A stretch of DNA of 64,000 nucleotides from an uncultured Nannocystaceae bacterium (GTDB taxonomy: Bacteria; Myxococcota_A; Bradymonadia; UBA7976; UBA1532), in contig CAYOBQ010000002.1 in assembly GCA_964402225.1 (NCBI GenBank), positions 27,594 to 91,593 on the forward strand, in the 5' to 3' direction. Made by a program: the position numbers and the translations under genes. Each line of letters starts with the position of its first letter. The stretch's first letter is position 1. Shown piece by piece: positions 1,200-19,051 of the stretch. The notes below the pieces were generated by a model. That model ran no database searches and had not been told where the DNA came from. It was given only the letters and a program-made list of their open reading frames with translations.

Positions 1200-3605
1200 A
1201 TGCCCGTCCGCGCAGCCGTCATCCTCGCCGGCCTCCTGTGCTGGAGCCCCGCCTCCGCCGCACCACCGCCCGCTTACGACCGGGCCGAAGCGGCGTACAA
1301 GGACGGCGACTATCCAGGTGCCGCGCGCCTCTACGAAGACGCCGTTCTCGAGCTCCCCGAGGCCCAAGGCCCGGAGGTGATGACCAAGCTCGGCCGCTCG
1401 CTGGCCAAGGCGGGACGCCTCGACGAGGCGGAGCGGTGGCTGAAGCGGGCGCAGCGGGAGGGGACGCCAAGGGTCAAGGCCATCGCGCTGCGCAACCTGG
1501 GCCGCGTGCTCCAGAGCCGAAACGACCTCGAGGGCGCGCTGAAGCTCTACACCGAGGCCCGCGACGCCCACGCGAGCCGGGGGGAGAAGCGCGACCTGCT
1601 GATCGCCAACCTCTACATCGCAAACGCCGCCGTCCTCGAGGGGCGCCTCTTCCCCGCGTACCAGGCGTACGAGGGCGCGCTGCAAGCAGCCCGCGAGCTC
1701 GGTGAATCGAAGCAGGAGGCTGCGGCCTTGGCGAACCTCGGCTTCGTGCTCATTGAGGTTGGAGAGCTCAAGGCCGCCGATTGGCAGCTCCAACAAGCCG
1801 CCGAGCTTCACGCCGAGGCCGGACGCGGGGCCGATCTAGCAGGGATTGAGCTCGCGCGAGCCCGGGTTGCTCTACAAGCGGAGCGATACGCGGACGCGAT
1901 GCGCCACGCCGCCCAGGCCAGCCAACTCGGGCCTGATTCGGTCGAGTTTCGTCGGAGCCTTGCCGCGCTCAGAGGCTACGTGGCTCTGGAGACGGGGCAG
2001 ATAGACAAAGGGCTCGAGCTCGTCCGGACTGCGGTGAAGGATGGCGAGCCAGTCTCGACGCCCCGGTTGCTGGACGAGCTCTACCTCCTGGAGGCGAAGT
2101 TGCAACTGAGAGCGGGCAGACCAGCGTCGGCCACCCGCGCACTCGACAAGGCCGCCCAGTGGCCGAGCTCGGCCCGACGCCAGGCGCACGCCGCATACAT
2201 CCGGGCCCGACTGGCTCGAGACCCCGCCGCGAAGATGATCCTGCTCAATCGGTTCTTGGACTTCTCCGAGCGCGCCCGTGGGGGCTTCGCGGCCGACGCG
2301 CTTCGCCTGTTCTTTCGCCCCGCAAACCTGCTCGGGTACGAAGAGTTGGTCGGAGAGGCGGCTCGTCACGGTCACGCCGACCTCGCCTGGCGAACCTCGA
2401 GTCTGGTGAAGGGACGGGCCTTCGCCCACCGCCTACTGACCCAACGGAGGTCTCGCAGATCGCAGGCTGTCGATCCGCTGGTGAGCCTCCGGCTCGGAGA
2501 GAGACTGCGCAACTCGAGAGGTGTCCATGAACGAGGGACCGAGCGCGGCGTCGACCTGCCCGCCGGAATGGCGATTCTCGACTACTTCACCACCCCCGAC
2601 GCCGTCGTCGCGGTCTGGCTCGACGCCAACCACTCGAGGGTCGTCCACCTTCCGATCCGCCGCGTCGGGCTCCTGGATCGAATCATCGCTCTCGAATCGG
2701 GAATCAGGCGCGGCGATGAGAGCTACCGCGACGCCGCGGAATGGCTCGCCAAGCGACTGATCGAGCCGTTCGCGGCCGAGATCAACTCCAACCTCGACGC
2801 GTTGCTCATCGCCCCATACGGTGCTCTGCATCGTGTTCCGTTCGAAGTCCTCCCGTTGCGCGGACGACCCCTCGTGCGCGAGGTCGCCATCTCCTACGCG
2901 GCGAGTGTCCCAGTGGCGATACGAGCGGCTCGGGGCGACCGATGGACCGTCCCGAGCCGGGTCGCGGTCGTGGCGGATGCCCAGTCCAACCTACCGGGGG
3001 CTCGCCGTACGAGTCTCGCCTCGCAGAGACGATGGCCCCACGCGAGAGCAGCGATCGGTGAGGACGCGAGCGAGGCCTCCGTTCGCGCGATGCTGCCAAC
3101 TGACCTGCTGCACTTTGCAGTCCATGGTCGGCGGACAGCGCGGGGCACCTACCTCAATCTCAGTCCCGGGCCAGTCCACGATGGCCGGCTCTACACAGAC
3201 GAATTGGCGGCGCTCGACCTCGAAGGGGCCCTCGTTGTGCTTTCAGCCTGCGCGACGGACGCGGTCGTGCCCGCTCCGGGGGATGAGATGCCAGGCCTGC
3301 TTGGACGCGGCGCGCTCTTGGGCGGGGCTCGAACCTCCATCGGAACGCGCTGGCCCATCGACGACGAGGCGGCCCGAGTCCTCTTCGAAGCGTTCTACGA
3401 ACACCTCGAGGAACGTGGGCCATTGGGCGCCCTCGCGACCGCGCAACGCGCGCTGCTCGACACCGCGGAGGAGGCTCCGGTCGTAGCGTTGCGGAGGTCT
3501 CGTGCGTGCGCGAAGAGGGGACTCACGCCGTGCAACCGTCTTCCCACCGCGCTATCTCATCCAATACACTGGGCCGCCTTCACGCTACGCGGAAACCCAA
3601 ACTAG
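1200..3605 (+). CDS. secreted TPR-repeat protein with C-terminal CHAT (caspase-like) peptidase domain
   Basis: Signal peptide MPVRAAVILAGLLCWSPASAAPP after an AGGAG-like RBS. Multiple TPR-like repeats (AEAAYKDGDYPGAARLYEDAV, LRNLGRVLQSRNDLEGALKLYTEA, etc.). C-terminal CHAT hallmarks: HFAVHGRR (His) and ALVVLSACATD (Cys). The ORF-track start at 981 (GTG) is probably too far upstream. Confidence 0.8.
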   Translation: MPVRAAVILAGLLCWSPASAAPPPAYDRAEAAYKDGDYPGAARLYEDAVLELPEAQGPEVMTKLGRSLAKAGRLDEAERWLKRAQREGTPRVKAIALRNLGRVLQSRNDLEGALKLYTEARDAHASRGEKRDLLIANLYIANAAVLEGRLFPAYQAYEGALQAARELGESKQEAAALANLGFVLIEVGELKAADWQLQQAAELHAEAGRGADLAGIELARARVALQAERYADAMRHAAQASQLGPDSVEFRRSLAALRGYVALETGQIDKGLELVRTAVKDGEPVSTPRLLDELYLLEAKLQLRAGRPASATRALDKAAQWPSSARRQAHAAYIRARLARDPAAKMILLNRFLDFSERARGGFAADALRLFFRPANLLGYEELVGEAARHGHADLAWRTSSLVKGRAFAHRLLTQRRSRRSQAVDPLVSLRLGERLRNSRGVHERGTERGVDLPAGMAILDYFTTPDAVVAVWLDANHSRVVHLPIRRVGLLDRIIALESGIRRGDESYRDAAEWLAKRLIEPFAAEINSNLDALLIAPYGALHRVPFEVLPLRGRPLVREVAISYAASVPVAIRAARGDRWTVPSRVAVVADAQSNLPGARRTSLASQRRWPHARAAIGEDASEASVRAMLPTDLLHFAVHGRRTARGTYLNLSPGPVHDGRLYTDELAALDLEGALVVLSACATDAVVPAPGDEMPGLLGRGALLGGARTSIGTRWPIDDEAARVLFEAFYEHLEERGPLGALATAQRALLDTAEEAPVVALRRSRACAKRGLTPCNRLPTALSHPIHWAAFTLRGNPN

Positions 3606-3617
3606 GGAGTTCTTTCC

Positions 3618-4511
3618 ATGGCCGATCCTACCGACGCGAGGCGCCAACAGCAGCGCTCTGAGACGATAAGAGCCCTCGTAGGGCAGGGAGACCTGGCCCA
3701 ACGTTCGCCTTGCACTCACCCGTCACCGACCACCGCACCGGCCGTCGTCGCGGGCGGTTGTGGCGTCACGGTCACGGTTCACGTCGCTTGCAACTGCGGA
3801 GGACGAGGGAACAGCGCCGGCGTACGACCCGCGGGGCCGCCCGGTCCACAGCCGACCGACCCCGAAGACCCCGAGCTCCCACGGCCGTTCTTCCACGACA
3901 GCTCCGTGCCCCGCCACGCCTTCCCGCTGTGGGCCAGCGGCTCCCTCCCCCACCACTACCAGTCCGTCCACCAGTGGGCGTACGAGGCCGCCGGCGACCA
4001 GATGTCGACCTTCATGTTCGCCGAGAACGATGCCACGGCGTACAAGTACCGGGGCTTTGGGGTAGCGGATGTGGGGGGTGGGAGCAGCCCGGTGTCGGTG
4101 ACGATGGGAGCGGGCTACGACAGCGCCTCGCGGAAGAGCTACGGGGCGGGGGACTGGCCCGTGCAGGGGCTGGCGTTGGCGGCCACCCCGGGGCCGCCGG
4201 ATTCGTCCGGGCTTTGGGTCGTGGACTTCGTGCACAGCGCCGCCCCGGCTGGCGACCACCTCCAGTTGGTGCTCATCCCGCGCAAGGTCGGGAACTACGG
4301 CACCTCCCACACCTTCACGAAGTACAAGTACCAGGGGGCCGTGAGCACCTTGGCGTCCGTGGGCGGCACCACGACGGCGACGGTCTACCTGGCCCAGCCG
4401 GTGGAGTACTACGCCTTCGTCGTCTCGTCGCCGAGCGCGAGCTACGGGGTGGAGAAGGAGAACGCCACCTGTGAGGTGGTGTCCCAGGTGTTCGAGCTCG
4501 CGGCACCCTGA
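3618..4511 (+). CDS. hypothetical protein with Pro/Gly-rich disordered N-terminus and Gly/Ser/Thr/Tyr-rich beta-type C-terminal half; translationally coupled to downstream S8 peptidase
   Basis: 297-aa ORF 13 nt after the CHAT gene stop. Its stop TGA overlaps the ATG of the S8 gene (cccTGATGcct). No signal peptide and no recognisable catalytic motif. Confidence 0.5.
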   Translation: MADPTDARRQQQRSETIRALVGQGDLAQRSPCTHPSPTTAPAVVAGGCGVTVTVHVACNCGGRGNSAGVRPAGPPGPQPTDPEDPELPRPFFHDSSVPRHAFPLWASGSLPHHYQSVHQWAYEAAGDQMSTFMFAENDATAYKYRGFGVADVGGGSSPVSVTMGAGYDSASRKSYGAGDWPVQGLALAATPGPPDSSGLWVVDFVHSAAPAGDHLQLVLIPRKVGNYGTSHTFTKYKYQGAVSTLASVGGTTTATVYLAQPVEYYAFVVSSPSASYGVEKENATCEVVSQVFELAAP

Positions 4512-6775
4512 TGCCTCGCTTTGGTGACATCTACGGTGTGGCGGCTCGGCGGGTCCGGGCGGATGCGCCGACGTTGGCGGAGCGGGTCCGCGCCGAGCTT
4601 CGGGCCGCTCGGGCCGCTGGCCTGTCGGCGGTGGCGGGGGGGGATGACGACGACGTGGCGCGGGCTCGGCTCTTTCCTCGCGGGAAGGGCTTCAAGGAGC
4701 CGATCGTCAAGGACTTCGGCGGCCATGGCGTGATCCCGGGGGCGGACGACGACGACGACGGGGCGCCGCGGCGCGTCCCGCCCCTCGAGTTCGACCCGAT
4801 GCGCTACCCGCCTCGCGTCATCCTGCTCTTCTCCCGGCCGCCCTTTCGCGCCTACCGCGACGGCATGCGCGACTTCCTCGATCCAGCGGTCGCGGCGGCC
4901 TTCGCGCGGCTGGATCGGCTGACGGAGGGCGGGATCGATCTGCGGCGCATATTCACGAGCCTCCCCGACGCCGACCGCCGGCGGGTGCTGGGGGAGGTCT
5001 CCGATCGCGCCTACGCGGTGCACCTTCGCCGGGGCCTCGACCCCTCGGAGGTCCACCGGACGCTCGACCAGATGCTGGTGACGGACCGCCGCGAGGTGGG
5101 CGAGGCGCCGCTGCTGACCTGGGCCTATGTGGAGCCGCTGCCGGCGCCGCCGCCGAGCCTCCCGTCGGATCCCTTCCTCGGCGATCAGACCGCCTTGACC
5201 GACCCCTTCCCCTCTTCGATCGGGCTGTCGAGGGCCTGGGACGCGGGGGTCATGGGCGATGGGGTCCGCTTCGTCGACGTCGAGCAGGGCTGGCTCCTGT
5301 GCCACGACGATCTGCCCAAGGCCGCCGACGGCACGCCGGCGATCACGCCGCTTTGGGGCGTCAACGCCGCCTACGGACACCACGGCGCCGCGGTCCTGGG
5401 GCTCTTGGCGGCGACCCACGAGACGCGGCAGGGGGCGGGCGTCGCGCCGCGGGCCGAGGGGCGCGTGGCGTCGGTGTGGTCGGTGGCCGAGGGGGCCATC
5501 TTCGACCAGGGTCAGGGCTGGGGCGTCCCGGCCTTTGGTGAGCCCGATGACCTGCTGCCGTGGATCGGCTCAACGCTGATCCACAGCCCCGCCGACGCCA
5601 TCCTCGCGGCCCTCCACTGGCTCCGGGCCGGCGACGTCCTGGTGATCGAGCACCAGGTAGGGGACTTCGTCAGCTACCGCGGGCGCGAGGTCTTCACCTT
5701 GCTGCCGGCGAGCGCCGATCCGTTGACGCGGCTGATGCTGCGGGCGGCCTATGCCCTGAATGTGGTGGTCATCGAGGCCGCCGGGAACGGTGGCTACGAC
5801 CTCGGCGGCTACAGGGACCCCAACGGGCACGCGGTCTTCAGCGATCCGCGCTACCACACGGGCTCGATCATGGTAGGGGCCGGCAAGGACGTCGGCGACC
5901 ACGAGCGCTACGACTCGGCCACGGCGGGGAGCAACTACGGGCACCGGGTCGACAACTACGCCTGGGGACTTCACGTCGCGACCCTGGGCGATCCGACGGC
6001 GCCGTACAGCCTCGACGGGTGGAACACCGACTTCCGCGCGACGAGCGCCGCCACGGCCCTCGTCGCCTGCGCGGCGGTCGCCCTCCAAGGCGCGCGCAAG
6101 CAAGCGGGGAAGGATCCCTACACCCCCGACAAGATGCGAGACGCGCTGCGTCACGGGGTGCCCTCCGGGGACGCCGCCTTGTACCCGATCGGCGTGATGC
6201 CGGACCTGGATGTGGCCCTCGCGGCGGCCCTCTCGGCGGGGGCCGCGGGCGCCCCGACGCCCAACCTGTGGATGCGCGACCACGTCACCGACACCGGCGT
6301 GCCCTTCGACGTCCTCCCGAACGCCGCGCGACGCAGCCCGGATCTGCACATCATCGAGATCGCGACGGGGGCCCGCGTCGCCGACGGCGATCCCGTGGAG
6401 CGTAGCGCCAACCCCGCCTACAGCGTCGTGGCCCACGTCCGAAACAGGGGCGCCACGGCCCACGACGTCCCCCTGGACCTCTACCTCGTGGCCCAGATCC
6501 CCGACGCGTTCACGGGCCCGAAGACCAGCGACGCACTCCACCTCACGACCGTGAACCTCGGACAGGTCGACCAGGGGGGGGCGACCCCCACGCCCGCACA
6601 GCCCTTCCGCACGGACCTCGGCGCCAACTTCTCGGTCCTGTGGGTGGTCGCGGTGGTCCGCGGGCCCGACGATCAGGCCGGTCAGCCCCCCGCCGCGGGG
6701 ACCCCCGAGCTGGCGTTTCTCAACTGGGTCACGGCCCACGAAAACGTCGCGGTTCAGGACATCCTGCTGGCCTGA
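4511..6775 (+). CDS. S8 family subtilisin-like serine peptidase (no signal peptide; long N- and C-terminal extensions)
   Basis: Catalytic triad context: FVDVEQGW (Asp), HHGAAVLGLLAA (His), GWNTDFRATSAATALVACAAVAL (GTSxA Ser), plus NVVVIEAAGNGG oxyanion region. 754 aa. Confidence 0.8.
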   Translation: MPRFGDIYGVAARRVRADAPTLAERVRAELRAARAAGLSAVAGGDDDDVARARLFPRGKGFKEPIVKDFGGHGVIPGADDDDDGAPRRVPPLEFDPMRYPPRVILLFSRPPFRAYRDGMRDFLDPAVAAAFARLDRLTEGGIDLRRIFTSLPDADRRRVLGEVSDRAYAVHLRRGLDPSEVHRTLDQMLVTDRREVGEAPLLTWAYVEPLPAPPPSLPSDPFLGDQTALTDPFPSSIGLSRAWDAGVMGDGVRFVDVEQGWLLCHDDLPKAADGTPAITPLWGVNAAYGHHGAAVLGLLAATHETRQGAGVAPRAEGRVASVWSVAEGAIFDQGQGWGVPAFGEPDDLLPWIGSTLIHSPADAILAALHWLRAGDVLVIEHQVGDFVSYRGREVFTLLPASADPLTRLMLRAAYALNVVVIEAAGNGGYDLGGYRDPNGHAVFSDPRYHTGSIMVGAGKDVGDHERYDSATAGSNYGHRVDNYAWGLHVATLGDPTAPYSLDGWNTDFRATSAATALVACAAVALQGARKQAGKDPYTPDKMRDALRHGVPSGDAALYPIGVMPDLDVALAAALSAGAAGAPTPNLWMRDHVTDTGVPFDVLPNAARRSPDLHIIEIATGARVADGDPVERSANPAYSVVAHVRNRGATAHDVPLDLYLVAQIPDAFTGPKTSDALHLTTVNLGQVDQGGATPTPAQPFRTDLGANFSVLWVVAVVRGPDDQAGQPPAAGTPELAFLNWVTAHENVAVQDILLA

Positions 6776-7278
6776 CTACAGGACATCTCCCTCGATGCGC
6801 CGGGTCAGGACCGTGTCGATCCGGTCCAGGAAGGCGAAGGTGAACGGCACCGCGAGGGTGACGACGACGACGCGGGGGACGATGAGCGACCCGACCCGGG
6901 CCGCGAGGAGGGTGTCGCCCATGAAGACGCGGGCGACGACCACCAGCAAGAAGAGGCTGACGAAGCCGCCGACGAGGCCGAGCAGGCCGTAGCCGACGAC
7001 GCCCTGGAAGCGGACCTGATTACCGAGGGCCGCGGCGGCGTAGAAGAGCAGGACGGCGTGGAGCATGTGCAGGCCGAGGGGGGAGCCGGCGAAGCCGTCG
7101 GCGATGGCGCCCAGGGCCGCGGCGAGGACCGCGCCGTGGATCCAGGACCGCCGACCGCCGATCCAGAGGACCACGGCGCTGAGGAGGTCCGGGGACCAGG
7201 CGTCGAGGGCGAAGGCCTCGCGGACGAAGAGCTCGCCCATCAACGCGCCGATGCCGACCAGAACCGGTAGGGCGGTGT

Positions 7279-7282
<4 letters not shown>
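6776..7282 (-). CDS. mreD: rod shape-determining protein MreD
   Basis: 168-aa polytopic membrane protein immediately downstream of mreC, overlapping it by 4 nt. Typical mreBCD order. Confidence 0.7.
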
Positions 7283-11085
<3,803 letters not shown>

Positions 11086-11092
11086 CGTCGCG

Positions 11093-12154
11093 CTACGCGA
11101 TCGCGCGGCGGAGCCACCTCAGCACCGACAGCGGCAAGAGGCCCGTCCGCAGGAAGCCGATGCGGGCGCGCCAGAGTTCGTCGGCTGTCTCCGCGCGACC
11201 CGCCGAGGCGAAGTAGCGGACCAACCGGTCGAGCAGCATCGAGACCATCCGCCCGTCGCCGTTGCGGTAGGCGGTCGACACCTCCTCCACCAGCCACGCC
11301 GACTCCGCTCGCTCACGGGCGCGGACCACGCCGGGCTCGACGTAGGCGGCCTCGGAGGGGTCGGGGCTGCACCGAATCGTGACGTCCACCGCGGCGAGCT
11401 GCGTCCCGCCATCGAGCACGGCGACGCGGGCGAGCCGGTGGGTCCCGATTCGCCGACGGGGGACGGCCATCTCGAGGGTGTGGATCAGCGCGCCGGAGGC
11501 GGGCAGCGCGCCGGCGTCCCAGCTCAACGATCCAGCGCGCTCGTCGAAGCGAACCGCGTCAACAGCCCGCGGGCGCGGAGCCACCCGGAAGAGCCGCTGC
11601 GCCTCGATGTCCTGGGCGAAGGCGACCTGAACCTGGAGGGCTCGGCAGGCCGATCGGCGAAGCTGGTCGAGGTGACCGCGCAGCCCATCGGCATCGATGA
11701 CCTCGCCCCCCACGCGCGTGATGAGGCGCTGGAGCGGCCCCGAGTCGACGTCGGGCCCGGCGCAGACGAAGTCGAAGGCGACCCCTTCCTCGGCGGCCTT
11801 CTCGAGGGCGGGGAGCGCGTCGGAGGCGCCGAGCATCGGGCGCGTCACGAGCAACAGGATACGCTCGATGTCCGCGTCACCCGCTGACTCCAACGCGCCG
11901 TGCAGCGTCGAGAACGGCTGCACGGGCTCCTGCGTTCGGTCGCGGAGCCCCCTGGGCGTCCAGGCCCGAGCGCCGTCCGTCGCCTCGAGAGCCCGGCGGG
12001 CGAGGGCCGCCGAGCCGACGACGGCCACCGCGACGTCGAGGGGGCGCGCTTCGACCGGCGGCGCGGAGATCTCGAGCAGCGCGGTGACCTTCAGCGCGGC
12101 GTCGGCGACCGAGCAGACCGGCGGATCCACGCGGCAACGAATCGTGACGCTCAC
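11093..12154 (-). CDS. hypothetical protein, possible vWA-like fold; last gene of the signalling operon
   Basis: GTG start overlaps the TGA of the upstream PP2C gene (acGTGAgc). The product is globular-looking, with DVAVAVVGSAAL...ILLLVTRPMLGASD...FDFVCAGPDVD beta-alpha patterning. No confident motif. Confidence 0.45.
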   Translation of the reverse strand: MSVTIRCRVDPPVCSVADAALKVTALLEISAPPVEARPLDVAVAVVGSAALARRALEATDGARAWTPRGLRDRTQEPVQPFSTLHGALESAGDADIERILLLVTRPMLGASDALPALEKAAEEGVAFDFVCAGPDVDSGPLQRLITRVGGEVIDADGLRGHLDQLRRSACRALQVQVAFAQDIEAQRLFRVAPRPRAVDAVRFDERAGSLSWDAGALPASGALIHTLEMAVPRRRIGTHRLARVAVLDGGTQLAAVDVTIRCSPDPSEAAYVEPGVVRARERAESAWLVEEVSTAYRNGDGRMVSMLLDRLVRYFASAGRAETADELWRARIGFLRTGLLPLSVLRWLRRAIA

Positions 12155-14025
12155 GTGTACGCCTCCGCGAACCCGTCGGAGGCGAAGCGAAGGACGATGC
12201 AGGAGATGTTGTCGCCTCCCCCCCCCCGGTTCGCCGCAACCATCAAGTCGAAGGCCGCCCAGGTCGCCCCCGGGGCGGCGTCCACGATCTCGCGAATCCG
12301 GCGCTCCGCGTCCTCCTCGTCGAGCCCCGCGTAGTCCGGGATGCCGTCGGAGGTGAGCACCAGGGTGTCCCCCGGCAGCAGGTCGAACTCGAGGAACTCT
12401 GGATGCAGGGGGACCGCTACGAGCTGGTCGTCGTCGCCCTTCTCGAACTCGCCAACGCAGCGGATGAGGGCCGCGGCGGACTGCACGTTGCGGGCGAACG
12501 TAGGCGGCCGGCCCATCCGCATGAGTTGAGTCGCGAGGTCGTGGTCGACCATCAACGAGGCGATGTGACCATCGCGCACGAGGTAGATTCGGCTGTCGCC
12601 AATGGAGCAGAGCGTGGCGTGGTTGCGCTCCAGGAGCACCGCGACCGTGGTGGCCGCCATGATGCCCTCCGGCGGGCCCTTGAACCGCGGAATGGTCTGG
12701 TGGACGAGCCGCCCTATCCGGCCGTTCGCCCGATCCAGGATCCCTTGGAGCAAGCGTTGGCGACCCGCGGCGGACTCTGGAAGGACGGGGGTCATCTCGC
12801 CCAACCCGTCGAGCGTGCGGTCGTCGAGCTCGTCGCCGTCGACGCAACCGGAGGCGATCTCCCGCCACCCCTCGAGGGCCTCCTGGCGGACGCACCCGCT
12901 CGCCATGTCGCCGCTCCCGTGTTGCGAGATGCTGACGCCATCGCTGATCAAGAACAGGCCGATGCCGGTCTCACCGTGGTAGGCCAGGAAGAGGTCGTCC
13001 TGATTGGTCGGCGCGTACTGACCCTTCAACACCCCGATGTGCAGCTCGTGCCCGATGTCGACCGGGAGCGGGCTCGGGGTGACCTCCCGGCGTCGGCGCA
13101 CGGTGCGCAACGCCTGCTCCAGGGCGCCGAGCAGCTCAGCGGCGTCTGCGTAGCGCCGGGCGGGGACGGGGGAGGTCGCTCGCCGAGTCACCGCCGCCAG
13201 CTCCGCGGGCACGTCCTCGTGGTAGATGTGCGGCGGCGGCAGGCGGTGGGAGGACTCGCTGGCTTCGACCAGTCGCGCGATGCGCGCCAGCACATAGAAC
13301 ATCGACACGCCGATGAAGAAGACGTCCGCGCGCGCATCCACCACGCCGTCGCAGTGGCCTCGGACCTCCGGGGCGGCGAACCCGCGGATCGCTCGGCGCC
13401 GAGCGTCGTCGCGCGGTGCCTCACGCGACCACAGCGTGGGCGGCGCGCGGAAGACGCAGTGCCCGTCGACACCGACCAGCAGCTCTCCCGGATCGGGGTC
13501 GCCGACCATGTAGCCGGCGGCGTGCAGTCGCGCAAACGCCCGCGCTATGGGGACGATCCAACGCTCGACGAGCGCCAGCGACTCCCCGCCGTCGCGGTCG
13601 GCGAGGACCGCCGTCAGCCCCTCTTGCAGACTCGGCGCGTCGGGCAGCGCGGTGAGCGTGTAGCGCAGGCCATCGAGGTCCAGCCCCGCGCTCGGGCTCA
13701 ACGCCAGCTCGTCGAGGGTCGCGCGGGCCTCGGCGCGCCGCCCGAGGACGCCGCCGGGATCCCCCGCCGGGGTGACGAGGACCTCGAAACGACGGCCCTG
13801 CGCGTCGGCCCCCAGGTAGCGGTGGGACCCCTCGGGAGCGACCAGCGGCGCGCGGAGCTCTACCGACTCAACGAGATCCCCGACCGTCGGCCACGCGACG
13901 CCATCGCCGGTCTGCTCGAGCTGGAAGCCGCAGGTGCCGCAATACCGGTCGTCCCCGGCGCGGCCATTGCAGACCGGACACGCGTCCGGTCGGTCGGCCA
14001 CCCGATCACCACTCGCTGTGGGCAC
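12151..14025 (-). CDS. multidomain signalling protein: N-terminal C4 zinc ribbon, Ser/Thr-kinase-like domain (possibly degenerate), C-terminal PP2C-family phosphatase
   Basis: Zinc ribbon: CPVCNG...CGTCG. Kinase-like subdomain VIb/VIII-like segments: LHAAGYMVGDPDPGELLV, GFAAPEV, DVFFIGVSMFYVLAR. PP2C motifs: LFLAYHGETGIGLFLISDGVSISQHGSGDMAS, LVLTSDGIPD, GGGGDNISCIVLRF. Confidence 0.75.
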   Translation of the reverse strand: MPTASGDRVADRPDACPVCNGRAGDDRYCGTCGFQLEQTGDGVAWPTVGDLVESVELRAPLVAPEGSHRYLGADAQGRRFEVLVTPAGDPGGVLGRRAEARATLDELALSPSAGLDLDGLRYTLTALPDAPSLQEGLTAVLADRDGGESLALVERWIVPIARAFARLHAAGYMVGDPDPGELLVGVDGHCVFRAPPTLWSREAPRDDARRRAIRGFAAPEVRGHCDGVVDARADVFFIGVSMFYVLARIARLVEASESSHRLPPPHIYHEDVPAELAAVTRRATSPVPARRYADAAELLGALEQALRTVRRRREVTPSPLPVDIGHELHIGVLKGQYAPTNQDDLFLAYHGETGIGLFLISDGVSISQHGSGDMASGCVRQEALEGWREIASGCVDGDELDDRTLDGLGEMTPVLPESAAGRQRLLQGILDRANGRIGRLVHQTIPRFKGPPEGIMAATTVAVLLERNHATLCSIGDSRIYLVRDGHIASLMVDHDLATQLMRMGRPPTFARNVQSAAALIRCVGEFEKGDDDQLVAVPLHPEFLEFDLLPGDTLVLTSDGIPDYAGLDEEDAERRIREIVDAAPGATWAAFDLMVAANRGGGGDNISCIVLRFASDGFAEAYT

Positions 14026-14062
14026 TACGCCTCCGCCGGTGCGAGCGGCGATGCTACCCCGA

Positions 14063-15970
14063 TCACCAGCCGCGGAGCGAGGGCCCCGAACGCAAGCTGC
14101 GCTCGGATTCGTCGAGGCGGTCGGCGCGCAGGACCGTGAAGCTGAAGGTCGAGCCCTCCCCGGGGCGGCTCTCGACCCAGATACGCCCCTCGTGGAGGCC
14201 GATGAGCTCGCGGCAAATGGGCAGCCCCAACCCCGTGCCGACGACCTTCAGCTCCCCCTCAATCTGCCGGAACTTCTCGAAGACGTGGGGGGCGTCCTCC
14301 GGGGAGATTCCGGTGCCGGTGTCGATGACGTCGAAGCGGATGTCGGTGTCGTCGTAGGTGACGCGCACGCGGATGCTCCCCTCTTCGGTGAACTTGATCG
14401 CGTTCGACAGCAGGTTGACGAGGACCTGCGAGACCCGGTCGCCGTCCGCCCAGGCGGGGGGGCAATCGCTGGGGAGGGTGGGCTCGACGGGGAGCCCCTT
14501 GACTCGCCACAGCCCCGCGGTGGCCGCGATCGCACCATCGACCAGCGGGGCCACCTCGGTCTCTTCCAAGTGCAGGTTGAGCTTCCCCGCCTCCAGCTTG
14601 CTGAGATCGAGGACGTCGTTGACGAGGCGGCCGAGGCGCTCGCCCTCCGCGTCCACGACCTGCATGTCGTCGAGGACCTTCGCGAGGGCCTCGCGGGCGG
14701 GGCCCTCGACGCCCTGGAGCGCTGGCGTCACCTGGCGGCTGAGGCGCCGCAGGTTGAGCTTGTTGAAGCCCACGATGGAGGTCAACGGCGTGCGCAGCTC
14801 GTGGGAGACGCCGGCGAGGAACGCCGCCTTGAGATCCTCGAGCTGCCGTTCCTTGGTGACGTCCCGCTTGCGATTGATGATCGCCTCGATCTCGCCGTTC
14901 TTGCCCAACAGCGGGTAGGTGCTGATGCGGGTCACGGCGTTGCCGAAGGCGCGGTGCTCCACGCTCTTGGGCTTGCGGTCACGCAGCGTCGCGAAGGCCG
15001 GGCAGTTCTCGCAGATCTCGTCACGCATGCGAAAGGCGCGGTAGCACTTCCGCCCGATGGCGTCGCGCCCGAACATCGAGCGGGCCGCGCGGTTGGCCTG
15101 GAGGATCTCCCCCTCGGGGGAGAGCACGGTTATCGGATCGGTGATCGCGTCGAAGAGATTCTGAAAGAACCGCTCCGAGTCGGCGAGACGGGTCTCCACG
15201 AGCGCCAACTCACGGGTCAGCTCGTCGACGTCGCGCGACTGCCGAGCGACGAGCACCACCCGCTCCACCCGCCCATCCTCGAGCCGGGACACGGCCCCGG
15301 AGGTCTCGAGCCGGATCTGCTCCCCCGTCGCGTCGGTGAAGTCGACCTCGACGCGGCTCGCCGCCCCTGCCGGATCCGCGAGGAGCACGCGGTACCAGGC
15401 CGGCATGCGACCAAAGAGGTGTTCGACGCTCAGCCCACAGGCGCCTCCGTGATACCCGAGAAACGTCGCGAAGGGTGCGTTGTGCAGCTCGACGACGCCG
15501 TTGGCGTCCAGCACGACGAGGGCGTCGGGCATCGAGTCGATGACCTGCTGGATGTAGTCCCGATCGACCCGCGCCTCCTGCGCGAGCAGGAGGTAGGCGG
15601 CCATCTCGTTGACCGCCGCCTTGAGGCGTCCCATCTCGTCGTGGCGCCGCACCTCGAGGCGACCCTCGAGCTCCCCGCGAGCGATGGACTCGACGCGGGC
15701 GAGCACCTCGTTGAGCGGGCGCACGACACGACCGTGCAGAAGCACGACCGACGCCCCGGCCAGGACCAGGATGCCAGCGGTGAGGAGCACCGTCGCGATG
15801 ATGGGGTCGAACCCGGTGCCGGTCCCCACGACGTAGACCGCGAGCCCGGCGCAGACGGGCACCAGCAGGCTGTAGACGCCGATCAACAGCAGCAGCGTAC
15901 CGAAGGTGCTCAGCCGGGGCGCCGGTGGCTTCCCCGCCGGCCCGGTCTCAGAAGTCGAAGTCGAGGTCAA
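14063..15970 (-). CDS. sensor histidine kinase (TM-HAMP-PAS-HisKA-HATPase_c)
   Basis: Two N-terminal TM helices. HAMP and PAS regions. H-box GVSHELRTPLTSIVGF. N/G1/G2 boxes (LVNLLSNAIKFT, IDTGTGI, GTGLGL). Confidence 0.85.
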   Translation of the reverse strand: MTSTSTSETGPAGKPPAPRLSTFGTLLLLIGVYSLLVPVCAGLAVYVVGTGTGFDPIIATVLLTAGILVLAGASVVLLHGRVVRPLNEVLARVESIARGELEGRLEVRRHDEMGRLKAAVNEMAAYLLLAQEARVDRDYIQQVIDSMPDALVVLDANGVVELHNAPFATFLGYHGGACGLSVEHLFGRMPAWYRVLLADPAGAASRVEVDFTDATGEQIRLETSGAVSRLEDGRVERVVLVARQSRDVDELTRELALVETRLADSERFFQNLFDAITDPITVLSPEGEILQANRAARSMFGRDAIGRKCYRAFRMRDEICENCPAFATLRDRKPKSVEHRAFGNAVTRISTYPLLGKNGEIEAIINRKRDVTKERQLEDLKAAFLAGVSHELRTPLTSIVGFNKLNLRRLSRQVTPALQGVEGPAREALAKVLDDMQVVDAEGERLGRLVNDVLDLSKLEAGKLNLHLEETEVAPLVDGAIAATAGLWRVKGLPVEPTLPSDCPPAWADGDRVSQVLVNLLSNAIKFTEEGSIRVRVTYDDTDIRFDVIDTGTGISPEDAPHVFEKFRQIEGELKVVGTGLGLPICRELIGLHEGRIWVESRPGEGSTFSFTVLRADRLDESERSLRSGPSLRGW

Positions 15971-16337
15971 GTCCCAGCACCTCGGCGGCGCGGGTGACGA
16001 TCTGGTCGGGGTCGAAGGGCTTGGTCAGGAACTCGTGGGGGCCCGTCTGTGCGTCCATCGGCCCGGTCTGCCCCTTGGCGGTCAGGATCACGATGTGCAC
16101 GCCCGCGAGTTGAGGGTCCCGCCGGATGGCGGCGCAGACCTCGGTGCCGTCCATGCCCGGCATCATCACATCGAGGAAGACCAGATCCGGCTTCAGGTCC
16201 CGGGTCTTGGAGAGGCCCCCGATCCCGTCCTCCGCGAAGTGGATCTCGACCCCCTCGAGCTCCAGCTCCTCCAGGGTGCGGTGGAGCAGCAGCCGGATGT
16301 GGCTCTCGTCGTCGACGATCAAAATGCGCTTGGCCAC
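15948..16337 (-). CDS. single-domain response regulator (CheY-like receiver)
   Basis: VAKRILIVDDESHIRLLL...LVFLDVMMPGMDGTEV...IVILTAKG has the receiver Asp pocket, phospho-Asp and Thr/Lys. GAGAGG RBS before the GTG start. Sits between two histidine kinases. Confidence 0.8.
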   Translation of the reverse strand: MAKRILIVDDESHIRLLLHRTLEELELEGVEIHFAEDGIGGLSKTRDLKPDLVFLDVMMPGMDGTEVCAAIRRDPQLAGVHIVILTAKGQTGPMDAQTGPHEFLTKPFDPDQIVTRAAEVLGLDLDFDF

Positions 16338-16347
16338 CGGATCCCTC

Positions 16348-17505
16348 TCAGTCGTTGCGCGCGAGGGGCAGATGCACCGTGAACACGGCGCCTTCACCGA
16401 CCTCGCTCCGAGCCGAGACCCGCCCATCGTGGTGCTCGAGGATCGTGCGCACGAGGGCGAGACCGAGCCCGGTCCCCTCCTTCGTGTGTATCACGTTCTC
16501 GATCCGATAGAACTTGTCGAAGATCTGCGGGAGTTGCTCTGGATCAATCCCGATCCCGCTGTCGGCGACCTCCACATGGACCTCGTCGCCATCGACCCAC
16601 TGGCGCAGTCGCACCCACCCCTCGTCGGTGAACTTGATGGCGTTGGCGACGAGGTTGGTGAAGACCTGGGAGAGCCGCGTGCCGTCGCACTCCACCACCG
16701 CTTCGTCTTGTGTCTCGCAACTCAACTCGAGCCCCTTGGCCTCGGCCTGGATGCGCAACAGCGTGACCACCCCCCGCACGACCTTCGAGACCGGCCGAAC
16801 GTCCATGTCGTACTGCATCTTGCCGGCGAGCAGCTTCGACACGTCGAGGATGTCGTTGATGATGACGATGAGCTTGTCGGACTCCTCGTCGATGATCCCC
16901 ACGAACTCGCGGAGGATCTCGCCGGGCATGTCCTCGTCGTCGAGGATGGTGGCGGCGAAGCCCTTGATGCTCGCGAGCGGAGTGCGCAGCTCGTGGCTCA
17001 CGTTGCTGACGAAGTCGTTCTTCATCTCGTCGAGGGCCTTGAGCTCCTCGTTGAGCCGCGCGAGCTCCTCGTTGTGGTCGCGCAGCCCGACGATGAGCTG
17101 GTTGTTCACCAGCGCGATCCCCGCCTGGCGCCCCAGGGCGCGCACGAGCTTCGCGTCCTCGGCCAGGAATTCGCCACCGCCCCGACGGTCGCAGAGCGAG
17201 ATCTCGCCGAGGTGGCCCTGGGCGGTCTCGATCGGGACGCTGAGCGCCGAGGTCTGTGTCTCGGGCGCCGACCCGACGACCAGGCCGTCGTCGAGGACGA
17301 TGCGGCCCTTTCGCGCGCGCACGATCCGCCGCGCCTCGCGCAGGACGAGCTTGCAGATGTCCTCCGGCCCCAGGCAGGCGTTTATCGACTCGCCGATGCG
17401 GTAGAGGAGGGTGATCTGTCGATAGCGGTTGAGCGTCTCGCGAGAGAGCGCGTCGACCTGGGATTTGAGCTCGATGACCCGCGGGTCGGCTTCAGATTCT
17501 GCCAT
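16348..17505 (-). CDS. GAF-domain sensor histidine kinase
   Basis: N-terminal GAF-like region. H-box SHELRTPLASIKGF. HATPase_c motifs (NLVANAIKFT, DSGIGI, GTGLGL). Confidence 0.85.
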   Translation of the reverse strand: MAESEADPRVIELKSQVDALSRETLNRYRQITLLYRIGESINACLGPEDICKLVLREARRIVRARKGRIVLDDGLVVGSAPETQTSALSVPIETAQGHLGEISLCDRRGGGEFLAEDAKLVRALGRQAGIALVNNQLIVGLRDHNEELARLNEELKALDEMKNDFVSNVSHELRTPLASIKGFAATILDDEDMPGEILREFVGIIDEESDKLIVIINDILDVSKLLAGKMQYDMDVRPVSKVVRGVVTLLRIQAEAKGLELSCETQDEAVVECDGTRLSQVFTNLVANAIKFTDEGWVRLRQWVDGDEVHVEVADSGIGIDPEQLPQIFDKFYRIENVIHTKEGTGLGLALVRTILEHHDGRVSARSEVGEGAVFTVHLPLARND

Positions 17506-17536: not shown

Positions 17537-18277
17537 CTACAAGTCAGCCCGCACCGGACGCGACGCGCGCGAGCGAGTCTTGCCGTCTTCGTCCCAGGCC
17601 ACCACGTAGAAGGTGTAGGCGTGCCCGGCCTCCAAGGCGATGGTCAGACGGGTCTCCTCGGTGAACCAGACGTAGCTCTGCTCGACGAAGGCGGCGTTCC
17701 GCCCCGCCCGCAAGCCGTGGACCGCGTACTTGTCGGCCGCATCGACTTCGTCCCACTCAAGGGTGATGGCGTCCCCCTCGACCGTCGCTCGGAGGTTCTG
17801 CGGCGCCCCGAGGAAGCCCGTCTCACGGCCGCAGACGACGCACAGCTCCTCGGGCTCCTCGGGCTCCGCCTGTTCGCGGCCGGCGAAGGCCTCCTCAGGC
17901 GGCAGATCCCCGGCCGCGCACATCATGCGACACGCGCGGTCGAGGCCGCACCGCGCCGCACACGACGGCTCACCGCTGGCCTCCCCCCGCGAGGGGAGAC
18001 GATCGGCGTCGGGCATCCCCCGGTTCGCGTTTGGATCCTCCACGCGCCGTCGCCACGCCTCGATGGGGCGCGCGTGCGGGTCGTGGCGTCGAATGGTGCG
18101 CCACGTCCCCGGAACCTGGAACTCGGCGCGTCGCGCCGCGTCGGCGTCGAGCTCCGGCGTGAAGAGCTCCGCCTCTTCGACCTGCGTCGCGAGCCCCTCG
18201 GGGCTGGTCCCCGCCGGCCCGGGCTCGTGGCCACAGGCCAGCAGCGCGAGAGGGACGAGGGTGAGCAACGGGCGCAT
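17537..18277 (-). CDS. lipoprotein with C-terminal fibronectin type III-like domain
   Basis: Lipobox LALLACG. Cys-rich middle. C-terminal PQNLRATVEGDAITLEWDEV...YTFYVVAWDEDG is an FN3-like pattern. Confidence 0.55.
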   Translation of the reverse strand: MRPLLTLVPLALLACGHEPGPAGTSPEGLATQVEEAELFTPELDADAARRAEFQVPGTWRTIRRHDPHARPIEAWRRRVEDPNANRGMPDADRLPSRGEASGEPSCAARCGLDRACRMMCAAGDLPPEEAFAGREQAEPEEPEELCVVCGRETGFLGAPQNLRATVEGDAITLEWDEVDAADKYAVHGLRAGRNAAFVEQSYVWFTEETRLTIALEAGHAYTFYVVAWDEDGKTRSRASRPVRADL

Positions 18278-18280
18278 CTT

Positions 18281-19051
18281 TCAGTCCTCCGTCGCTCGCG
18301 TCGGCGTCATCCCGGCGTAGAGCGCGTAAAGCTGAGCGTCGTCGGCGTCCTTCGCGTTCGCCTCCATCTCCGCGTACCGCGCGCGGACGAACTCGAAGAG
18401 CTCGTCGCGGAACTTCGCCATGTCGTCGGGGCGCGCGAGGAAGCTGAAGGTTCGCGCGCCCGCGGACGCTGGCGCGTCGTCCAGGAAGCGTCGGCGGATG
18501 GTCTCCGTCACCGCCTCGAGGTGCTCGTAGAGCGCGTCGATGCGCGCATCCCAGTCGTCGTCGACGACGAGATCCTGGTGCATCTCCACGCAACGGTAGT
18601 GGACGCGGGCCCCGGGGCGGGATGGCGCCTCTTCGATGCGGCCCTCACGGACGAGCGCCTTCACCGCCAGCCGCGTGCTGTCGAACTCGTTGCAGTGGGG
18701 GAGCCGGTCGGCCAGCTCGTCCATCGTCATCGGCCGCTGCCGCAACAGGTCCTCGACGCGCCGCATCAGGTTGGTCTCGTTCTGCTCGAAGAAGCCGCCC
18801 TTGTTGAAGCGCGCCGAGAGCGCCTTCACGGTGCGGGTGGACTTCCCGAAGATCAGCGAGATCAAGTTGATGGTGGAGTGCTTCCGCTTCGCCTCGCGCC
18901 ACAGCGCGAGGGTCATCATGTCCTTGACCGTGTCGAGCGGGTAGTTGTGGTCCACCGCCATCTTCACGGCCGGGTAGAAGGTCGCGAAGAGCACCCGGAG
19001 CAAATACTCCGGGTAGGGGATCGGCGCCGCGTCTCGTGACTCTGCTTGCAT
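18281..19051 (-). CDS. hypothetical protein, possible winged-helix DNA-binding regulator
   Basis: Start at MQAESRD ATG. The upstream 260 codons of the ORF-track entry are the antisense of a plus-strand ORF and are rejected. Helix-turn-helix-like segment KSTRTVKALSARF and RLAVKALVREGRIEE. Confidence 0.5.
   Translation of the reverse strand: MQAESRDAAPIPYPEYLLRVLFATFYPAVKMAVDHNYPLDTVKDMMTLALWREAKRKHSTINLISLIFGKSTRTVKALSARFNKGGFFEQNETNLMRRVEDLLRQRPMTMDELADRLPHCNEFDSTRLAVKALVREGRIEEAPSRPGARVHYRCVEMHQDLVVDDDWDARIDALYEHLEAVTETIRRRFLDDAPASAGARTFSFLARPDDMAKFRDELFEFVRARYAEMEANAKDADDAQLYALYAGMTPTRATED

Follow-up and report, generated by a model that had tools for sequence, protein, structure and literature searches.

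The 64-kb window analysed here (the whole stretch of DNA under study) holds a myxobacterial minus-strand cluster in which histidine kinases and a receiver stand directly ahead of a protein with a zinc ribbon, a kinase-like domain and a PP2C phosphatase, followed by a vWA-like protein. This combination raises the question of whether the cluster belongs to the conflict or defence systems that its parts recall, or whether it is a signalling device of another kind. The cluster is best described as a bacterial version of a phospho-switch module that is already known, chromosomal rather than a mobile conflict or defence system. As to how it works, the model to which we give about even weight is a Ser/Thr phospho-switch made of g4 and g5, in which a ribbon-docked phosphatase would act on g5 and be tuned by the receiver g2 with input from g1 and g3.

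Gene array and two-component genes

Five minus-strand open reading frames, g1 to g5 (Table 1), are found where the original prediction had placed them, and the domain calls agree with the gene order that it gave. The junctions, described there as overlapping or short, measure 10 nt between g1 and g2, 37 nt between g3 and g4, and 4 nt of overlap between g4 and g5, while g2 and g3 overlap by 23 nt, or are separated by 61 nt if the JGI start of g3 is used. Third-position GC in the five frames is 0.86–0.93. The longest frame of g2 would begin at 16427, and the JGI call is the 129-aa protein; g3 has a TTG start at 15970 with a GAGGTG Shine-Dalgarno sequence upstream, whereas the JGI gene call begins at 15886. 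The GTG start of g5 lies in a GTGA overlap with the g4 stop, with GGAGG 8 nt upstream, and is fixed at 12154 because third-position GC, which is 0.91 within 11093–12154, falls to 0.46 in the upstream extension of the frame.

Two further genes precede g1 on the same strand, up_246 at a distance of 31 nt and u256 another 3 nt upstream, the latter bordered by a divergent intergenic region of 216 nt. No terminator matches above background were found inside the array, which probably comprises seven closely spaced genes, not five, with u256 as the first. The frame of u256, called by JGI as 256 aa, has a third-position GC of 0.92–0.97 over 18300–18900, and homologues (E 1e-83 to 1e-128) occupy the equivalent position in 22 related loci. 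Its family and structure matches are weak and of the wHTH type only (PF0610-like_N, 0.002; AdcR/MarR, 0.16), and the protein may contain a winged helix. The N-terminus of up_246 (LALLAC) resembles a lipobox, and its fn3 match (E 2e-4) falls under the Pfam cut-off; a homologue directly precedes g1 in most related loci, or g4 where the two-component genes are missing.

Table 1. Coordinates of the genes and g4 domains in the window
Feature	Position	Strand	Description
u256	18281-19051	-	conserved 256-aa protein; possible winged helix
up_246	17537-18277	-	putative lipoprotein, C-terminal fibronectin-III-like domain
g1	16348-17505	-	soluble histidine kinase: coiled coil, partial GAF, HisKA, HATPase_c
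g2	15948-16337	-	CheY-like stand-alone receiver, 129 aa, GTG start
g3	14063-15970	-	membrane histidine kinase: two TM segments, HAMP, PAS, PAS, HisKA, HATPase_c
g4	12151-14025	-	zinc ribbon + pseudokinase + PP2C; GTG start after GGAGG
g4 N-terminal C4 zinc ribbon	13930-13980	-	CPVC-x9-CGTC, residues 16-32
g4 pseudokinase domain	13081-13893	-	residues ~45-315
g4 PP2C/PPM phosphatase domain	12184-13062	-	residues ~322-614
g5	11093-12154	-	ArnB-type three-part protein, 353 aa, GTG start

Searches with Pfam and NCBIfam, together with the visible motifs, identify g1 and g3 as HisKA/HATPase_c kinases and g2 as a receiver with the full motif set, so the GAF kinase, CheY-like receiver and PAS-HAMP kinase originally called were essentially right, except that the GAF domain of g1 is partial (1.6e-4, at or under the Pfam threshold). 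The kinase core of g1 is matched by HisKA (about 2e-19 to 1.9e-18) and HATPase_c (2.3e-31), its H-box reads SHELRTPL, and orthologues (E 1e-118 to 1e-161) occur in the 13 loci with a complete gene; the copy in L001, which ends at a contig edge, matches at 1e-55. In g3, the Pfam matches are HAMP (2e-12), PAS_8 (3e-16, in two stretches), HisKA (5e-15) and HATPase_c (2e-29). In the receiver (Response_reg, 4.2e-23), the motifs comprise a DD acidic pocket, the Asp of FLDVMMPG as phospho-acceptor, the ILTAKG Thr and the LTKPF Lys.

Domain architecture of g4 and g5

The N-terminal ribbon of g4 can be read directly from the sequence, as had been claimed, with its cysteines spaced C16-x2-C19-x9-C29-x2-C32. 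Of the 26 loci among L001–L027 whose g4 orthologue is followed by a g5 homologue, 22 keep a CxxC-x8/9-CxxC motif, and so does L011, which is contig-truncated. The ribbon is missing from those g4-like proteins whose partners are divergent or carry a canonical vWA domain, and the N-termini of these partners do not align to the β1-β2 loop of g5, where a PP motif is invariant. Ribbon and PP motif thus co-occur, in a correlation that is weak by itself and confounded by phylogeny.

Behind the ribbon, a complete, bilobal protein-kinase fold is predicted with high confidence, and both MVGDPDPGELLV and the APE motif quoted in the original prediction are found in g4. Pfam Pkinase gives no match to g4 at E<=10. 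The suspected degeneracy of this domain is borne out by an alignment of g4 and its orthologues with PknB: GxGxxG is absent, the Lys is replaced by Leu and DFG by RAP, and the HRD position reads VGD in the window protein but varies elsewhere. As far as these motifs can tell, the g4 kinase domain is a complete but catalytically dead kinase fold. The distant paralogues in L029 and L045 score above the Pfam Pkinase threshold, yet also lack the catalytic residues.

It could still be argued that g4 is a bifunctional kinase/phosphatase, with a non-canonical kinase of the WNK or CASK type phosphorylating g5 and the PP2C domain reversing the reaction. The intact fold and the Asp of VGD in the window protein would suit such an enzyme, and a writer and an eraser fused beside their presumed substrate would be economical. 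This reading is nevertheless improbable, as the Asp at the HRD position is not kept among the orthologues, where N, G, A, L, V, F, Q or W is found, and the whole family lacks the β3 Lys, the Gly-rich loop and DFG, with no substitute invariant Lys or Asp in those columns of the ortholog alignment that cover the N-lobe or the catalytic cleft.

The phosphatase call, on the other hand, proved sound. The PP2C domain matches the Stp1 model at 5e-21, and its acidic metal-binding motifs (xxD, DGxxG-like, GDSR, SDG and DN) are intact and invariant, so that it is predicted to be active. No FHA domain was matched in g4.

The vWA-like description of g5 is right in that a vWA domain is present, but the protein is not a plain vWA. 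It has the three-part ArnB-type fold, in which the vWA domain (residues ~38-167) is inserted in an eight-stranded β-sandwich (N-terminal strands 1-31, the rest at ~170-264) and followed by a C-terminal four-helix bundle (~266-353). The metal-ion adhesion site (MIDAS) is degenerate in the window clade, with VGS for DxSxS and TRP for TDG, whereas canonical relatives (L032, L039, L046 and P0079-84) retain DCSAS or DCSGS and (S/T)DG. Neither a Pfam VWA nor a PADLOC match was obtained for g5, which is a soluble scaffold of the ArnB/Sec23-24 fold that has lost this site. Conservation in g5 is highest at P11/P12 of the β1-β2 loop and, in the tip of the last helix hairpin, at R331, L335, R336 and G338; residue 337 is a Ser or a Thr in 17 of 22 sequences. 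The bundle holds a single semi-conserved Ser/Thr.

Conservation and chromosomal context

In 30 loci, a Planctomycetota MAG and Candidatus Hakubella among them, the gene immediately downstream of the g4 homologue encodes a g5 homologue, and the two genes are usually translationally coupled. The g4-g5 pair is the conserved core of the cluster. The gene order HK-RR-HK-g4-g5, with its orientation and its short or overlapping junctions, recurs unchanged in 14 loci with a g4 identity of 38–59%, basal branches of the g4 tree among them. Linkage to the two-component genes is real, although facultative: they are missing from the slot in at least seven genomes (L010, L012-L016 and L018), and also from L021 and L023, where a homologue of the lipoprotein gene directly precedes g4 (weakly in L023, E 8e-4).

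This facultative coupling bears on the view that HK-RR-HK is a separate cassette which merely shares the slot, its receiver having another target and g4-g5 functioning independently. We regard this as unlikely, but as deserving some weight. It would account for the slots between the lipoprotein gene and ppiD that hold g4-g5 alone, for the pairs of Planctomycetota and Hakubella, which lack histidine kinase and receiver genes as well, and for the scattering of such loci through the g4 tree. However, the arrangement is kept in 14 loci across the deepest clade splits; only 37 nt, devoid of any terminator-like signal, separate g3 from g4; and g2, having no output domain of its own, needs a protein partner.

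The coupling of His-Asp and Ser/Thr signalling had been called unusual. The linkage itself holds, but it is less unusual than claimed, because PP2C phosphatases under His-Asp control are already known in the form of fused receiver-PP2C proteins such as RsbY and HsbR. In these, a phosphorelay governs how active a PPM-family phosphatase is, and the substrate is a STAS-type partner-switching protein. In the present cluster, by contrast, the receiver is separate from the phosphatase and the presumed partner is ArnB-like.

The locus is single-copy and syntenic in more than 20 genomes, the order being the MerR-TPR gene, the wHTH-like gene and the lipoprotein gene, then g4 and g5, then ppiD and mreBC, and the slot is inherited vertically. 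This speaks against the resemblance to 'ternary' conflict systems that had been proposed. The 'ternary' systems of Kaur et al. (2020) are MoxR-vWA-VMAP systems with effector domains, in which the vWA gene lies next to genes for a MoxR AAA+ ATPase and for VMAP, iSTAND or another protein as the third core component, with variable effectors fused to the vWA protein (PMC7159879). Within ±10 kb, the called genes contain no AAA/MoxR, VMAP, nuclease or effector-type Pfam domain, and g5 has no C-terminal effector. Defence-system models match neither g4 nor g5 beyond generic kinase models, and the canonical-vWA relatives likewise match none. The analogy fails on these grounds.

The broader idea of a phosphorylation-gated anti-phage switch, whether TerY-P-like or 'ternary', draws on a parts list that resembles the TerY-P triad (vWA, PP2C, Ser/Thr-kinase fold and zinc ribbon) and on weak PADLOC matches to the kinase models PD-T4-6 and PglW. 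These matches cover the generic kinase C-lobe only, the kinase is dead and the MIDAS lost, and nothing points to effector swapping, the hallmark of conflict systems (PMC7159879). With single-copy, vertical synteny added, such a defence role is very improbable.

Known relatives and the proposed switch

Among known systems, archaeal ArnA/ArnB and the TerY-P triad come closest. In Sulfolobus acidocaldarius, ArnA and ArnB regulate the archaellum together with the kinases ArnC and ArnD and the phosphatase PP2A. The CX2C-X10-CX2C zinc ribbon of ArnA binds the β1-β2 loop and the helix bundle of ArnB, and the bundle is the phospho-acceptor, its phosphorylation beginning at the tip of the last helix pair (PMC12852372; PMC6509490). 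In the present cluster, the ribbon of g4 is conserved and the PP motif in the β1-β2 loop of g5 is invariant. g4 and g5 are bacterial and lie downstream of a two-component system, and g4 carries a pseudokinase and a PP2C domain where ArnA carries an FHA domain, so that the phosphatase is built in and of the PPM type rather than the PP2A type, and the FHA reader of phosphothreonine on the ArnB bundle has no counterpart in g4. Similarly, ArnB has an intact MIDAS and a bundle with many Thr, whereas the MIDAS of g5 is destroyed and the Thr-rich elongated helix pair is lacking. An uncharacterised bacterial ArnB-like vWA protein, Caci_2163 from Catenulispora acidiphila (PDB 4fx5), also differs from g5 in its intact, ion-bound MIDAS (PMC6509490).

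The TerY-P triad, which consists of a TerY-like vWA protein, a PP2C and a Ser/Thr kinase-zinc ribbon protein (Anantharaman et al. 2012, as in PMC11090510), shares with the cluster the presence of vWA, PP2C, kinase fold and zinc ribbon in adjacent genes. However, the TerY-P kinase is separate and active, with a C-terminal zinc ribbon (or OB fold), while that of g4 is dead, fused to PP2C and preceded by its ribbon. TerY is described in PMC11090510 only as a vWA domain, unlike the three-part g5 without MIDAS, and the TerY-related vWA domains of some CoCoNuT systems have a conserved MIDAS (PMC11090510). The contexts differ as well, g4-g5 occupying a conserved housekeeping slot and not defence, tellurite or restriction islands.

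The DRA0331-0334 operon of Deinococcus radiodurans (vWA, STPK, FHA protein and KI-FHA-PP2C; bioRxiv 10.64898/2026.01.23.701218) likewise joins a vWA protein with a PP2C bearing an N-terminal docking domain, a layout which supports the idea of a phosphatase targeted by its non-catalytic N-terminal module. It differs in its KI-FHA docking module, active kinase and separate FHA protein, and in having no two-component input.

By analogy with ArnA-ArnB, the phospho-switch favoured here would involve docking of the g4 ribbon at the junction of the β1-β2 loop and helix bundle of g5, keeping the phosphatase beside the C-terminal bundle. The bundle would be phosphorylated by trans-acting Hanks kinases, with the conserved tip R-x-x-[FY]-L-R-[ST]337-G as the candidate site; a search of the 64-kb window with a g4-N-terminal profile returned no active Hanks kinase. 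The dead kinase domain of g4 would serve as a docking or allosteric module and not as an enzyme, and the PP2C could instead have a substrate other than g5.

The conserved gene order further suggests that g2, a single-domain receiver, is phosphorylated by both kinases, the soluble g1 and the membrane-bound HAMP-PAS kinase g3, and that phospho-g2 then associates with g4 or with the g4-g5 complex to modulate the phosphatase, so that two His-Asp inputs would change the phosphorylation or interaction state of g5. The receiver-binding site on g4 or g5 is purely inferred. Candidate outputs of the switch would be the wHTH-like gene that heads the array and the invariant ppiD-mreBC neighbourhood.

Gene array and junctions

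The five minus-strand ORFs of the original prediction were found exactly at the predicted positions, and all of them are coding as judged by third-position GC (0.86–0.93, in a window of ~70% GC). They encode a soluble histidine kinase (g1), a receiver (g2), a membrane histidine kinase (g3), a protein with zinc ribbon, pseudokinase and PP2C domains (g4), and a vWA-like protein of 353 residues (g5). A 10-nt gap separates g1 from g2, which starts at a GTG at 16337 to give 129 residues, in agreement with the JGI call. Depending on the start of g3, its junction with g2 is an overlap of 23 nt (TTG at 15970, preceded by GAGGTG) or a gap of 61 nt (JGI start), and 37 nt lies between g3 and g4, where GGAGG precedes the GTG at 14025. 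The start of g5 is placed at the GTG at 12154 because the coding signal ends there, GC3 being 0.91 over 11093–12154 only and 0.46 in the upstream extension of the ORF. This GTG, with GGAGG ahead of it, overlaps the g4 stop codon as GTGA; g4 and g5 are translationally coupled and strictly adjacent.

Upstream of g1, the array runs on through a lipoprotein/fn3 gene and a 256-residue gene (u256), ahead of which there is a divergent gap of 216 nt. A same-strand unit of seven genes is therefore likelier than the proposed operon of five, all of whose members were confirmed, with two upstream genes to be added. A promoter and terminator scan returned one promoter-like and four terminator-like sites, a background level, such a scan being uninformative in DNA of 70% GC.

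Features of the cluster, its flanks and related genomes (window positions unless a locus is named)
Feature	Position	Strand	Remarks
CHAT/TPR protein	ends 3605 (flank 2151-6775)	+	
201-aa ORF	flank 2151-6775	+	between CHAT/TPR gene and S8 peptidase
S8 peptidase	4511-6775	+	
168-aa ORF	6776-7282		JGI call; stop-to-stop ORF 6776-7414 (213 aa)
mreC	7279-8151	-	
mreB	8148-9353	-	
ppiD	9352-11085	+	convergent with g5; 7 nt between the two stop codons
g5	11093-12154	-	
g4	12151-14025	-	
g3	14063-15970	-	
g2	15948-16337	-	
g1	16348-17505	-	
Lipoprotein/fn3 gene	17537-18277	-	31 nt from g1, upstream
u256	18281-19051	-	256 aa; 3 nt beyond lipoprotein/fn3 gene
Zinc-ribbon–kinase–TPR protein (~1000 aa)	L002:1-2998, L010:3035-6241, L012:3347-6850, L015:2902-5808	-	related loci

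Domain composition of the encoded proteins

The products of g1, g2, and g3 are ordinary two-component proteins with no unusual feature. The first holds HisKA (2e-19) and HATPase_c (2e-31) domains and a marginal GAF tail; the second is a receiver only (4e-23), with the acidic pocket, the phospho-acceptor Asp, the Thr, and the Lys all intact; and the third comprises two transmembrane segments, HAMP, two PAS domains, HisKA, and HATPase_c. A cysteine cluster in the second PAS domain of g3 (KCYRAFRMRDEICENCPAF, ~14990–15040, minus strand) is a possible metal or redox site.

The N-terminus of g4 bears a zinc ribbon (CPVC-x9-CGTC), kept in 22 of the 26 loci among L001–L027 that have a downstream g5 homologue. 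Its middle part is a kinase fold despite the missing Pfam Pkinase match, none being obtained even at E<=10: residues 132–329 match several NCBIfam and PADLOC models in their kinase regions (1e-9 to 3e-4), and family members at greater distance score above the Pfam Pkinase cut-off, with 1e-12 and 1e-13. This kinase is dead. By the alignment, the domain lacks a Gly-rich loop, a β3 Lys, and DFG (RAP in the window protein), and where the window protein has an Asp at the HRD position its orthologues have N, G, A, L, V, F, Q or W. APE is invariant, as are the Asp of subdomain IX and the Arg of subdomain XI. The alignment also includes PknB; the rows of four minus-strand neighbour kinases were left out of it. 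The C-terminal half of g4 is a PP2C phosphatase (NCBIfam Stp1 model, 5e-21), whose acidic metal-binding motifs NQDD, DGVS, GDSR, SDGxxD, and GGGDN do not vary among 26 homologues and line up with those of MspP and tPphA. With the catalytic motifs missing from the kinase and those of the phosphatase intact, g4 is therefore a zinc ribbon–pseudokinase–PP2C protein whose phosphatase is predicted from these motifs to be active. The conserved motif ANRGGGGDN is encoded by a run of ten G (~12213–12222, minus strand), which keeps the frame intact and is a likely hotspot of sequencing or slippage errors.

The g5 protein has no match in Pfam, NCBIfam, or PADLOC, even at E<=10, and its identity comes from iterated profiles built on the neighbours of g4 homologues, profile–profile comparison, and structure only. 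Its relatives were collected as the genes immediately downstream of g4 homologues. A word-indexed search with g5 recovered just 5 close proteins and 8 distant ones, so the alignment for AlphaFold2 was shallow; despite this, the model is confident (pLDDT 89.2) and predicts a vWA domain with β-strands before it (N-terminal) and after it, followed by a four-helix bundle. Distant relatives (L032, L039, L046, and the proteins P0079–84) carry DxSxS and are true VWA proteins by Pfam (1e-14 to 1e-22), and the profile of the window clade aligns with them over the full length (99% probability, E 4e-18). The g5 family profile also recovered 4fx5 from sequence (7.7e-8). In the window clade, the MIDAS is replaced, VGS standing for DxSxS and TRP for TDG. 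The description of g5 as vWA-like was thus correct and incomplete, since the protein is an ArnB-type three-part scaffold that has lost its metal site.

Conservation and genomic neighbourhood

A homologue scan with one genome per species gave 54 loci, of which L001–L045 hold a full-length g4-type match, nearly all of them in Myxococcota or Bradymonadia MAGs. Fourteen of these retain the order lipoprotein, g1, g2, g3, g4, g5, with ppiD convergent on it, and seven (L010, L012–L016, L018) have g4–g5 between the lipoprotein gene and ppiD without histidine kinase or receiver genes. In a neighbour-joining tree of g4, loci linked to two-component genes include the basal branches, and those lacking them occur here and there in the tree. 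This suggests a linkage that is ancestral but dispensable and that was lost or relocated at least four times. A wider order, with MerR-TPR and u256, then lipoprotein to g4 and g5, then ppiD, mreB, and the 213-residue ORF, recurs in more than 20 genomes, mreC being seen in the window's own contig only.

The more distant g4 paralogues (L028–L045) have no g5-like gene downstream of them; instead, pdxA, mlaD-like genes, or a zinc-ribbon–FHA gene are found there. Pairing with g5 is hence confined to the orthologues of g4 and the group of L032, L039, and L046. The zinc ribbon–pseudokinase–PP2C paralogue at L030, which has no g5-like neighbour, is immediately followed by a gene for a zinc-ribbon and FHA protein with the domain architecture of ArnA (L030:11731-12621, plus strand).

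As for the upstream genes, the putative lipoprotein has an LALLAC lipobox, a Cys-rich middle, and an fn3-like C-terminus. In most related loci its gene immediately precedes g1 (or g4 where two-component genes are absent), and it accompanies g4–g5 more constantly than the two-component genes do. Conservation of u256 is far above that of g4 or g5 (E 1e-83 to 1e-128 across 22 related loci), and its library matches are weak and of winged-helix type only (PF0610-like_N, 0.002; AdcR/MarR, 0.16). The protein is a possible DNA-binding output for the cluster.

Relation to known systems and proposed mechanism

The original interpretation holds for the domain calls and fails in its analogy with 'ternary' conflict systems. 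Those are MoxR-vWA-VMAP systems with swappable effectors (PMC7159879), and MoxR, VMAP, and such effectors are all absent from the genes called within ±10 kb. The published trio of kinase–zinc ribbon, PP2C, and vWA proteins is the TerY-P triad (PMC11090510). The cluster departs from that triad in that a dead kinase shares one polypeptide with the phosphatase, the ribbon lies at the N-terminus, g5 folds in the three parts of ArnB, and the genes occupy a housekeeping slot that has been inherited vertically. PADLOC returned generic kinase matches only for the cluster, which is not a new defence system and whose individual domains are all well known.

ArnA–ArnB is the best precedent for the mechanism. 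The CX2C-X10-CX2C ribbon of ArnA binds the β1-β2 loop and the helix bundle of ArnB, and phosphorylation of this bundle, which switches the complex, begins where the last pair of helices has its tip (PMC12852372; PMC6509490). In g5, conservation peaks at P11/P12 in the β1-β2 loop and, in the last hairpin, at the tip residues R331/L335/R336/G338; position 337 is Ser or Thr in 17 of 22 sequences. Contrary to ArnA, which holds an FHA reader, g4 has a PP2C eraser and a dead kinase in its place.

In the model proposed, g4 would be tethered to g5 through its zinc ribbon, and its PP2C domain would strip phosphates from the g5 helix bundle, or from a g5-bound client, placed there by trans-acting Hanks kinases. 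The pseudokinase would serve as a docking or allosteric module, and g2, fed by both the soluble and the membrane histidine kinase, may modulate the phosphatase or the g4–g5 complex. Leads to the output are the conserved winged-helix-like first gene and the ppiD-mreBC neighbourhood.

If this model holds, the ArnA/ArnB logic, in which a zinc-ribbon protein sits on a vWA/β-sandwich/helix-bundle scaffold whose interactions are set by its phosphorylation state, reaches from Crenarchaeota to Myxococcota, with an eraser and a dead kinase in place of the FHA reader and a two-component system as input. The cluster offers a compact, testable case of bacterial pseudokinase function and a means to examine how vWA scaffolds operate without a MIDAS. 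Its significance is limited by the small size of the family, the degenerate g5 clade comprising 30 representative clusters (50% identity) among 1.84 billion proteins, and by the origin of nearly all recovered relatives from uncultured MAGs.

Regarding an active partner kinase, a profile of the g4 N-terminal part run over all 64 kb matches g4 alone. Related genomes encode, 6–9 kb upstream and on the opposite strand, a protein of ~1000 residues, a homologue of which is absent from the 64-kb window. This protein combines a double zinc ribbon and a kinase domain with a long low-complexity region, a transmembrane segment, and TPR repeats. VAVK, HxDLKPxN, and APE are present in its kinase domain, DFG is not clear, and the protein resembles the N-terminal module of g4.
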